A stretch of 64,000 bases of DNA from Podarcis liolepis (Eukaryota), in assembly GCA_965112155.1 (NCBI GenBank), contig OZ218101.1; one strand, written 5' to 3'. The notes beneath the pieces are model-generated. The model did no database searches. It was not told the DNA's origin and was given only the letters and a program-made list of their open reading frames with translations. Position numbers and translations under genes: made by a program. The number at the start of each line of letters is the position of its first letter. Position 1 is the first letter of the stretch. This document shows, piece after piece, positions 61,002-64,000 of the stretch.

Positions 61002-61047
<46 letters not shown>
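61002..61047. repeat. (TAA)n microsatellite (L2 tail)
   Basis: Directly visible. Confidence 0.95.
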
Positions 61048-61460
61048 TTATTATTTGTATCCCGCCCATCTGGCTGGGCCTCCCCATGGAAGGGCGGCTT
61101 CCATAGAAACCAAAAATACACTAAAATATCACAGATTAAAAACTTCCCTGAACAGGGCTGCCTTAAGATGTCTTCTGAATGTCAGGTAGTTATTAACGCT
61201 TTGACATCACAGGGCGGGCGCCACTACCGAGAAGGCCCTCTGCCTGGTTCCCTGTAGCTTTGCTTCTCGCAATGAGGGAACCGCCAGAAGGCCCTCGGCG
61301 CTGGACCTCAGTGTCCGGGCAGAACGATGGGGGTGGAGACGCTCCTTTGGGTATACTGGGCCGAGGCCGTTTAGGGCTTTAAAGGTCAACGCCAGCACTT
61401 TGAATTGTGCTCGGAAACGTACTGGGAGCCAATGTAGGTCTTTCAAGACCGGTGTTATGT
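61048..61460 (-). mobile_element. L2 LINE 3' fragment
   Basis: ORF 61207-61494 ITPVLKDLHWLPVRFRAQFKVL...RAFSVVAPAL. Confidence 0.9.
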
Positions 61461-61856
61461 TTAGTAACACTAAATGGGGCGCAAACATCCTCACCCAGAG
61501 CTCCTAACAGTACCTCCATCTTGATATGATTCAGTTTTAACTTCTTCACCTCCACTTAGTCCTGAAATGACACCAGACTAATAAAATCTCTAAACCTGGA
61601 TGCGTCATTGTCTACAAACCCAAAATATCTCCTTCTCTTGAGCACTGTGACATCATGTGTTGCTCTGTCAAACTTAGAGAGTACAAGGTCATCTGGAAAA
61701 GATCTCTAGCAAGACATTCAAGTAACAACACCCCCTGGCCAGCAATTTTCATTTCAGAAAGCCACACAAACTATTATTTATAATTTCATTTTATTCCCTT
61801 TTATATCCCACTTTATGAATTTTTCAAAGGCTCTTAGTTTATATATTCTTCCCCTC

Positions 61857-62455
61857 TGTGATGGCCTGGGATTCCGATTCGGAGGATGAAACAGAGGAAT
61901 CCCAGCTTGCACAAGAGTCCCCGCCTCCAGGGCCGGCTGAACTGGGGCAAGGCCTAGATGCTGAAGAACCTGCACCTGTGGCAGTGCATCAGGAGCTGGC
62001 CCCAGGTGAAACCCTTCTGGCCCCAGAGAGGCTTGACGACTCAGTGGCCACAGGTGAGCCTCCTCCAGGGCCCAGTAACCCTTCGGCCTCTCCTGATCTG
62101 CAGAGGCTTAGGGCAGAGAGGCGAAGGGAACTGGTTGCCCCCAGGAGGAGTGCTCGCCTTAAGGCCAGAGGAGGCGGGGCTCCTGGGGGCCGGGACCGCC
62201 CCTGGCCTTAGAAGAGGATAAAAGCCCAGTCAGCCCGGCCCCAGGTTGCGGGAGCAACGTCGTTGTTGGCTTCGGACCTTCCTGTGTTCCTGATCCCTGC
62301 TCGGCCTCCTGTTCCCGACCATCCGGTGTTCCTGTTCCCTGCACAGCCTCCTGTTCCAGCGTTCCTGTTCCCCGCCCGGCTCTCTGCCTCGGACCTTGCC
62401 CCTCTTCGTGTGGACTCTGCTACACCCAAGGTACCTTACCCCCGGGACCAGCACA
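61857..62455 (+). repeat. 5' LTR (~599 bp)
   Basis: TGTG...CACA termini, TATA-like GATAAAA at 62217-62223, CCTGTTCC repeats in R/U5; the 3' LTR is not in the window, so the boundary is inferred. Confidence 0.75.
61861..62211 (+). CDS. 116-aa ORF in LTR U3: acidic N-terminus, Pro-rich middle, basic RRSARL motif
   Basis: Uninterrupted from an ATG 4 nt inside the LTR to a TAG just before the TATA-like box; expression unknown. Confidence 0.4.
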   Translation: MAWDSDSEDETEESQLAQESPPPGPAELGQGLDAEEPAPVAVHQELAPGETLLAPERLDDSVATGEPPPGPSNPSASPDLQRLRAERRRELVAPRRSARLKARGGGAPGGRDRPWP

Positions 62456-62457
62456 GT

Positions 62458-62467
62458 TTGCTCCCGC
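62458..62467 (+). promoter_or_regulatory. Self-priming primer-binding site
   Basis: TTGCTCCCGC is the exact reverse complement of GCGGGAGCAA at 62248-62257, the predicted transcript 5' end; no TGG-type tRNA PBS follows the LTR. Confidence 0.75.
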
Positions 62468-62518: not shown

Positions 62519-63393
62519 ATGGCTGAACAGGCGGCTGCACTGGTGGCTTTGGCCCAGGAGAACCAGGCCTTGACTCACACCGTGCAGCACTTCAGCAACG
62601 CTTGGAAGCCCTACCGGCTCCGGGGGCCGACGCCCCGGCTCCGGGCAAGTACCCAGTGGCTTTGCCTGAGAAATTTGATGGAGCCCCGGCCAGCTTTCCC
62701 ATGTTCCTGGCCCAGGCCAAGCTGTATATTCAGGGGCGAGCCCGGAACTTTCCTGACGACCGCACCAAGGTGCACTTTTTGATTAGTTTGTTAAAGGACC
62801 AGGCGGCCAAGTGGGCGTTGCCGCTACTCAGGCAAGACTCCCCCTTGCTGGCAGACTATACGGGGTTTTGCAATCGTTTGGAGGCCGCGTTCGGCAACCC
62901 CCAGAAAGAGAGTCAAGCCAACCGGGCGATTCGGCGTTTGAAACAGGGCAAGTCCACGGTGGCCACATATACCACGGAGTTTCGGCTGTTGGCACAGGAC
63001 TTGACCTGGAATGACTCGGCACTGCGGGACCAGTATCTCGAAGGGCTTTCGGACGAGGTACTGGACCAGTTGGCCACAATGGAACGCCCCACCACGCTGG
63101 ACACTCTCATTCAACGGAGTCTACAAATAGACGACCGGTTGGAGGATCGTCGTCAGGCCCGGGGTCGCCGACACTTCCAGTTCACGGCACCAGCTTTTTC
63201 CGGCAGCCCCACGGTCACAACTGATTTAACGGAGGAGCCTATGCAGCTCGGGGCAGTGCGGCCACGCCTTTCCCCCGCAGAGAAGGCGCGGCGTCGGGAG
63301 GGAAATCTCTGTCTTTACTGTGGCGGAAGTGGACACTTCGCTCGGTCCTGCCCTGAGAAACGCCAGCCGCAGGGAAACCGCCAACCCCAGTAG
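62519..63393 (+). CDS. gag: Gag (retrotransposon capsid plus CCHC zinc knuckle) with an apparent 1-bp frameshift near 62588
   Basis: ATG 62519 (MAEQAAALVALAQENQ...) joins the 62602-63393 frame (PEKFDG...FLAQAKLY...CLYCGGSGHFARSC) only with a frame correction. Confidence 0.9.
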
Positions 63394-63439
63394 CTGATGG
63401 CCCTAGCTACCGGGGGTCCCAAACCGTACAGAATGGGCC
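63372..63439 (+). promoter_or_regulatory. -1 ribosomal frameshift signal (G GGA AAC plus stem-loop/pseudoknot)
   Basis: Slippery heptamer 63372-63378 in the gag frame, 6-nt spacer, stem CCCC-A-GTAGCT / AGCTAC-C-GGGG; loop GGCCC pairs with GGGCC at 63435-63439. Confidence 0.8.
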
Positions 63440-64000
63440 CGCATCAATGGACTTGCAACATCTTATGGTTTCGGTACGTTTATACCCTCCAGGTGGGCCC
63501 TGGATCCTCACCCATGCTTTGGTAGATTCAGGGGCAACCCGCTCCTATATGGACGCTGCTTTTGCCGCCCATCATCAGGTGCCACTTCGGAACAAGCCAG
63601 TACCGGTCCAGGTGGAAGCGATTGACGGACGACTTCTGCGTTCAGGTGCCGTTACTCAGGAGACCCAGCCCCTGGTCCTGTGTCTCCAGCAGCACCGGGA
63701 GTTGCGAACTTTGGACATTGCCTCTATGCCCCGCTTTCCCCTGGTGCTCGGGATGGACTGGCTGGAAGCCCACAACGTTCAGATTGACTGGGTCAAACGG
63801 ACCGTGCACTTCCCAGACCCATGTTCCCATGCTCAATCCGGAACGCTGGCGGCCGCGCCCTCAGAGGAGGCAGCACCCACGCTCCCAGCCGTGTACCAGG
63901 ACTACCAGGACGTGTTCGAGGAACGGGGGGCAGACCAGCTGCCGCCGCATCGGCCTTTTGACTGCGGCATAGACCTCCAACCCGGAGCGCCTTTACCAGT
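63378..64000 (+). CDS. pol: Pol N-terminus (aspartic protease and start of RT), -1 frame relative to gag, open to the window end
   Basis: Manual translation: ...HALVDSGATRSYMD...VEAIDGR...LVLGMDWLEAHNVQIDW...YQDVFEERGADQLPPHRPFDCGIDLQPGAPLP, with no stop. Confidence 0.92.

Follow-up and report, generated by a model that had tools for sequence, protein, structure and literature searches.

Coding sequence that overlaps the U3 of an LTR is known from MMTV sag and lentiviral nef, which are separate genes with mRNAs of their own. The lizard frame described here has the overlap in common with them, but it is the end of pol. Its closest precedent is group A of the plant CRM elements, in which pol continues into the 3' LTR and codes for a targeting element (PMC3059260). 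The pol extension is common to both, and the likeness is one of arrangement. CRM elements have a CR motif instead of a chromodomain, are primed by tRNA-Met, and reside in plant hosts, whereas the lizard element keeps its chromodomain, adds a 116-residue tail coded in the LTR, is predicted to be self-priming, and resides in a vertebrate. The lizard element falls outside CRM and represents a variant of the known CRM-like design, with the end of pol coded in the 3' LTR.

The tethering of a retroelement protein to the nucleosome acidic patch has been described for the prototype foamy virus, where an arginine anchor of Gag steers integration (PMC12125541). The candidate anchor of the lizard element is a different motif, which sits on the integrase rather than on Gag and is coded by the LTR. 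Binding of the acidic patch by Dot5 (RRSARIAT) and Dsup (RRSSRLTS) needs three arginines, as stated in PMC13347269 and PMC12480509. The RRSARL motif of the lizard tail shares with HMGN, Dsup, and Dot5 the three arginines essential for this binding, and it lies where the tail is predicted to be disordered. It differs from the HMGN proteins in its location on an integrase and in the lack of a Pfam family match, the scan giving no hit to the HMGN family (HMG14_17) at E ≤ 1. Among the listings of the open-access literature, nothing reports a retrotransposon integrase with an HMGN-like or FxGF motif, or pol read-through into the LTR in squamates; the term "ORF" is absent from the available part of PMC3601003.

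We consider it fairly probable that the frame is the read-through integrase tail of a sushi-type chromovirus of young age and that this tail, through its Arg-rich helix and RRSARL motif, would tether the integration complex to nucleosomes.

The element in the window

The window, i.e., the whole 64,000-nt stretch of DNA that was analysed, corresponds to G000:C4:59706001-59770000 of a 1.57-Gb genome, and the element occupies C4:59767857-59773413. The names of almost identical UniRef proteins suggest a wall lizard of the genus Podarcis. Its features within the window are the following.

61852..61856, + strand: left copy of the TSD, 5 nt, identical to the 5 nt after the 3' LTR
61857..62455, + strand: 5' LTR, TG...CA, 599 nt; its 3' counterpart, 100% identical, is G000:C4:59772815-59773413
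61861..62211, + strand: U3 frame, duplicate of the last 116 pol codons, of which the 3'-LTR copy (L031:5320-5670) is presumably the one translated
61861..61902, + strand: acidic segment at the beginning of the tail, codons 1-14, with a pN/pS of 0.20-0.40 vs the oldest subfamily
62092..62136, + strand: Arg-rich helix of the AF2 model, tail residues 78-92, PDLQRLRAERRRELV, in the block where constraint at the protein level is strongest
62143..62160, + strand: RRSARL, HMGN-like motif (RRSARLKA vs the HMGN core RRSARLSA)
62216..62224, + strand: TATA-like box; the TAA within it is the pol stop codon in older subfamilies
62248..62257, + strand: 10 nt complementary to the PBS, near the presumed transcript start; putative Tf1/sushi-type self-primer
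62458..62467, + strand: PBS, complementary to 62248-62257
62519..63393, + strand: gag, with Retrotrans_gag, DUF4939, and zf-CCHC; frame broken near its start in the window copy
63357..64000, + strand: first part of the pol frame, which has 1270 codons between stops, continuing beyond the window and ending within the 3' LTR

An earlier note on this DNA had described an intact ORF in the U3, and its description of the sequence is accurate. The frame has 116 aa and contains the acidic DSDSEDETEE, the Pro-rich middle, and APRRSARLKAR, with RRSARL at the position reported; the ATG, which had been placed 4 nt into the LTR, begins at LTR base 5, and the frame terminates directly 5' of the TATA-like GGATAAAAG at 62216. 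The ORF by itself is weak evidence, because base shuffles of this U3, whose GC content is 63%, stay open over 116 codons in 2.7% of cases in the given frame and in 8.3% in any sense frame.

The assignment of the element to the sushi type, made in the same note, agrees with the present results. The Pfam scan of Pol gives the order PR-RT-RH-IN-SH3-Chromo, followed by 139 residues, which is the order of a Gypsy element with a C-terminal chromodomain. The PBS has a 10-nt complement located about 25 nt beyond the TATA-like box, from which the transcript start is predicted, and a PBS complementary to the element's own 5' RNA is the mark of self-priming in Tf1/sushi elements (PMC6317226). The 5-nt TSD is present in 10/10 elements with both ends read, out of 12 fetched, and the LTR pairs are 99.0-100% identical in 12/12, which indicates that the family of this element (family A) is very young. 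A quick tree places the element beside fish and amphibian chromoviruses; it has 30 rows, no named sushi-ichi sequence being among these and 4 short rows having been left out, and its long branches meet inside the squamate clade. The chromodomain, the DUF4939 gag, the predicted self-priming, and the 5-nt TSD are in common with the Tf1/sushi chromoviruses (sushi-ichi and the source lineage of PEG10), whereas most of the homologues seen stop within tens of residues after the chromodomain or have unrelated run-ons.

Several other observations concern the organization of the copies. Gag and pol are in offset frames in most full copies, and they form a single frame in one subfamily (L034, L036, and many 1564-codon frames). 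The heptamer GGGAAAC, the sequence of the PEG10-type -1 frameshift site, is found at the gag-pol overlap (window 63372-63378; L031-L042). The R/U5 region at 62270-62400 contains a short repeat unit, and copies differ in LTR length by 42-nt steps (about 600, 642, and 684). Chromodomain matches about 5 kb apart at G000:C2:104475170-104485323, C20:11770631-11776496, and C3:125381234-125386430 suggest tandem elements with common LTRs, in which the internal LTRs would be transcribed through U3. Old, degenerate copies of family A and of a second family, B, are concentrated on contig G000:C20, which we guess to be the W chromosome or another heterochromatic contig. Elsewhere in the window, a 93-aa ORF at 61207-61488 on the - strand resembles the end of a LINE reverse-transcriptase frame and adjoins an (AAT)n tract at 61003-61048.

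Passage of pol into the 3' LTR

Just beyond the window, in the 3' LTR, this frame forms the last part of pol. Pol proceeds from the chromodomain through the PPT, which is translated as GGPGRGDG, into V-MAWDSD...RRSARL and on to the stop of the tail, without an intervening stop codon. The tail is in frame with the chromodomain in 12/12 full elements, and in 10 of these 12 the frame is open over at least 1152 codons upstream. The first homologue found is a chromodomain protein that leads directly into MAWDSDSEDE. In three further searches, the frame from chromodomain to RRSARL was reached in 76 of 88 element loci, and the tail or the motif is lost in the remaining 12; two host chromodomain genes were set aside from this count, and some places are counted twice in it. 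The same junction occurs in UniRef proteins of Podarcis, and a like junction in those of Rhineura and Salvator.

RNA from a related organism is consistent with this arrangement. Of two stranded runs, one has sense reads that extend over pol and continuously across the junction, with a depth of about 3, and a 372-nt contig, from a run whose RNA nature is a guess, links the chromodomain with U3 in an unbroken sequence. Among the joints listed for the RNA runs, none leads into U3, at a depth low enough to miss a minor spliced form.

We are nearly certain, on this basis, that the ORF in the window is a duplicate, lying in the 5' LTR, of the final 116 pol codons, and that pol passes through the PPT into the U3 of the 3' LTR. 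The window copy of the tail frame lies upstream of the promoter. The results show that U3 is dual-coding in these elements, serving both as promoter and as integrase tail. The earlier note had proposed a separate accessory gene that needs splicing or internal initiation, as for MMTV sag, and had suggested looking for a splice acceptor; neither the separate gene nor the need for such a step holds, as the pol frame is uninterrupted and the contig from the presumed RNA run crosses the junction. No splicing is required, because the tail is in frame with the chromodomain in all 12 full elements.

Selection on the tail and the RRSARL motif

The tail is under purifying selection at the protein level. 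Compared with five copies of the oldest subfamily, its pN/pS is 0.41-0.50 (Fisher p 1e-11 to 4e-7; copy L261 was excluded as mis-assigned), which bears out the expectation that the tail sequence is a selected protein. In the same comparison, the ratio is as low as 0.16-0.21 in codons 71-91, the block of the predicted Arg-rich helix, vs 0.54-0.70 in the linker. The fixed differences from the oldest subfamily are distributed as 27, 25, and 46 over codon positions 1, 2, and 3 (p 0.016), and the corresponding test vs a nearer subfamily is not significant (p 0.38). The dN/dS of the tail, calculated for the window copy vs nine other copies, is 0.33-0.60, and that of the integrase is 0.06-0.14 in eight of the nine pairs, the tail being less constrained than the integrase; the rows L078 for the chromodomain and L074 for the integrase were excluded, as they are distorted by frame breaks.

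An older subfamily was found by a motif pattern (670 matches vs 7 for the control), and one of the matches led to a still older one. From the LTR start to the motif, the frame is kept in 22/26 and 17/23 of the old copies that could be located, 30 having been examined in each case. Collection of family LTRs, as had been suggested, yields RRSARL in the ATG frame in 125 of 138 LTR starts, a sample biased to young copies. Five copies of one subfamily are without the tail, which is lost in a run of G close to the PPT. These copies have variants in common with intact copies and not with each other, so that the losses seem to be separate events, either slips or errors of assembly.

In the AF2 model, obtained from the single sequence with a mean pLDDT of 55, the chromodomain is folded, and the tail is unstructured except for the helix at residues 78-92. 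The Pfam scan gives nothing for the tail, the PDB sequence search gives 0 hits, and the best score in the ESM Atlas is an uninformative 0.80.

The motif RRSARLKA is identical to the HMGN core RRSARLSA in 7 of 8 positions, position 7 being K, Q, or R and not S. As arginines 1, 2, and 5 of RRSxR[LI] are all present, it is HMGN-like in the sense used for Dsup and Dot5. It is kept in all four subfamily groups of family A with zero fixed amino-acid changes, and it is absent from the sister squamate families (RRSxR[LI] was not found in family B, Rhineura P0140, or P0014); among the squamate families examined, it is confined to this one. When 103 Pol homologues are compared, RRSxR[LI] follows the chromodomain in 1, which is family A itself, and it does so in 1 of 78 single-chromodomain matches, many of which are spliced gene models. 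The latter, P0237, is a chromovirus protein ending in MPHSDDVRRSARIAARV, with RRSARIAA right after a PPT-like junction, and this ending is possibly an independent HMGN-like motif.

We have also considered that the element took its motif from an HMGN exon of the host, and rejected this on the codon usage of two such exons. The two HMGN-type exons use the serine codon TCT vs AGT in the element, which argues for convergence rather than capture. Pattern searches for RRSxRL with TCN serine (906 matches vs 1423 for the control) and for the helix in other codons (26 vs 23) revealed no new family.

The proposed mechanism would start with the translation of the genomic RNA into a Gag-Pol that includes the tail. 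The integrase would be released with both the chromodomain and the tail, which would stay on the mature protein, and the 5'-LTR copy would normally not be transcribed. The disordered linker would let the helix and RRSARL reach the nucleosome, where an arginine of RRSARL would anchor in the acidic patch in the manner of foamy virus Gag; the Arg-rich helix would bind DNA or act as an NLS, and the chromodomain would add the reading of histone marks. Judged from its sequence, RRSARL has about an even chance of placing an arginine anchor in the H2A/H2B patch.

The same read-through may also be combined with a different role of the basic residues, namely, that the basic block is an NLS or a non-specific DNA- or RNA-binding element and that a promoter element of U3 which overlaps RRSARL, rather than nucleosome binding, keeps the motif unchanged. 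We regard this as a doubtful but serious alternative. The RRSAR codons have zero fixed synonymous changes and form part of a 19-nt identical run (shuffle p 0.012), and this invariant DNA is located about 55-75 nt upstream of the TATA-like box, i.e., in the proximal promoter. Moreover, it is [ST]P and an Arg-rich block, and not RRSARL, that the squamate families have in common. On the other hand, the Leu codon of the motif does vary synonymously, adjacent codons (92-94 and 101) change non-synonymously, and shuffling of the residues yields the exact RRSARL in only 18 of 200,000 cases and RRSxR[LI] in 147 of 200,000. The protein and DNA constraints on RRSARL are inseparable, because the DNA is invariant and belongs to the proximal promoter, and because it was the motif that led to the two older subfamilies, which biases both readings of the constraint.

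It is improbable that the U3 ATG gives rise to a stand-alone accessory protein, whether through splicing, through internal initiation, or from 5' or solo LTRs transcribed by read-through. The ATG is indeed flanked by G at -3 and +4 and has been retained in every subfamily of family A, and RNA reads enter the LTRs from the flanking DNA, with loose ends at the LTR start. However, the ATG belongs to the LTR end motif, CRM LTRs likewise beginning with TGATG (PMC3059260), and the corresponding residues are V-R or V-V in family B and in P0014. The continuity of the frame with pol also argues against it, as do the RNA runs, which at their low depth list no joint into U3. The gene models that start at this ATG in UniRef/NCBI (P0112, P0045, P0270, P0271, and P0169) fuse it to gag or to host exons of a GPCR, and they are probably annotation artefacts from LTR insertions.

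Finally, a neutral run-on, in which pol merely has no stop before a GC-rich LTR and the tail is functionless, would fit the frequency of equally long open frames in shuffles and the many chromovirus tails that are short or unrelated, but it is largely refuted by the pN/pS well below 1 and by the third-position excess. The five tail-less copies, which are not grouped by common variants, also speak against it, and we consider it very improbable.

Related squamate families and implications

The reading as a read-through integrase tail can be compared with the situation in other squamate elements. In family B of the same genome (Gypsy loci L163-L182, L184-L187, and L189-L202, e.g., L198 at G000:C3:53791000-53798400, and L168), pol proceeds through the PPT about 100 codons into the LTR; the DNA ends were checked in four elements, one of which has a stop in the tail. 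The family B tail ends with PTP and an Arg-rich block without RRSARL, and the chromodomain is degenerate. Two acidic-[FL]xGF motifs precede the PPT and persist over diverged subfamilies. The Anolis proteins P0088 and P0092 have SDE[ED]SFEGF after a PPT-like junction, and FxGF is the LEDGF/IBD-binding consensus (PMC6877644). The FxGF motifs of family B are thus a possible lentivirus-style tether in a retrotransposon, judging by the motif itself. Acidic tails after PPT-like junctions are also present in Rhineura P0140, Salvator P0157, and P0014, their position in the LTR being deduced from the protein alone. In the quick tree, a single clade (SH-aLRT 97) unites families A and B with P0014 and the Anolis elements.

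We tentatively suggest, as an idea less likely to be right than wrong, that the integrase tails of squamate sushi elements, reaching up to or into the 3' LTR, are a swappable cassette of host-mimicking motifs, with an HMGN-type anchor in family A and paired LEDGF/IBD-type acidic-FxGF motifs in the sister family with its degenerate chromodomain (one such motif in the Anolis family). If true, the ways in which foamy viruses and lentiviruses tether to chromatin would both have arisen anew in squamate sushi elements.

The dual-coding U3 affects how LTR evolution and LTR-derived gene models are to be read in lizards. The choice of integration sites by vertebrate LTR retrotransposons has been little studied, and, if the RRSARL motif works, the element would provide an integrase-borne acidic-patch anchor, convergent with HMGN, in a very young, high-copy family with mappable insertions.
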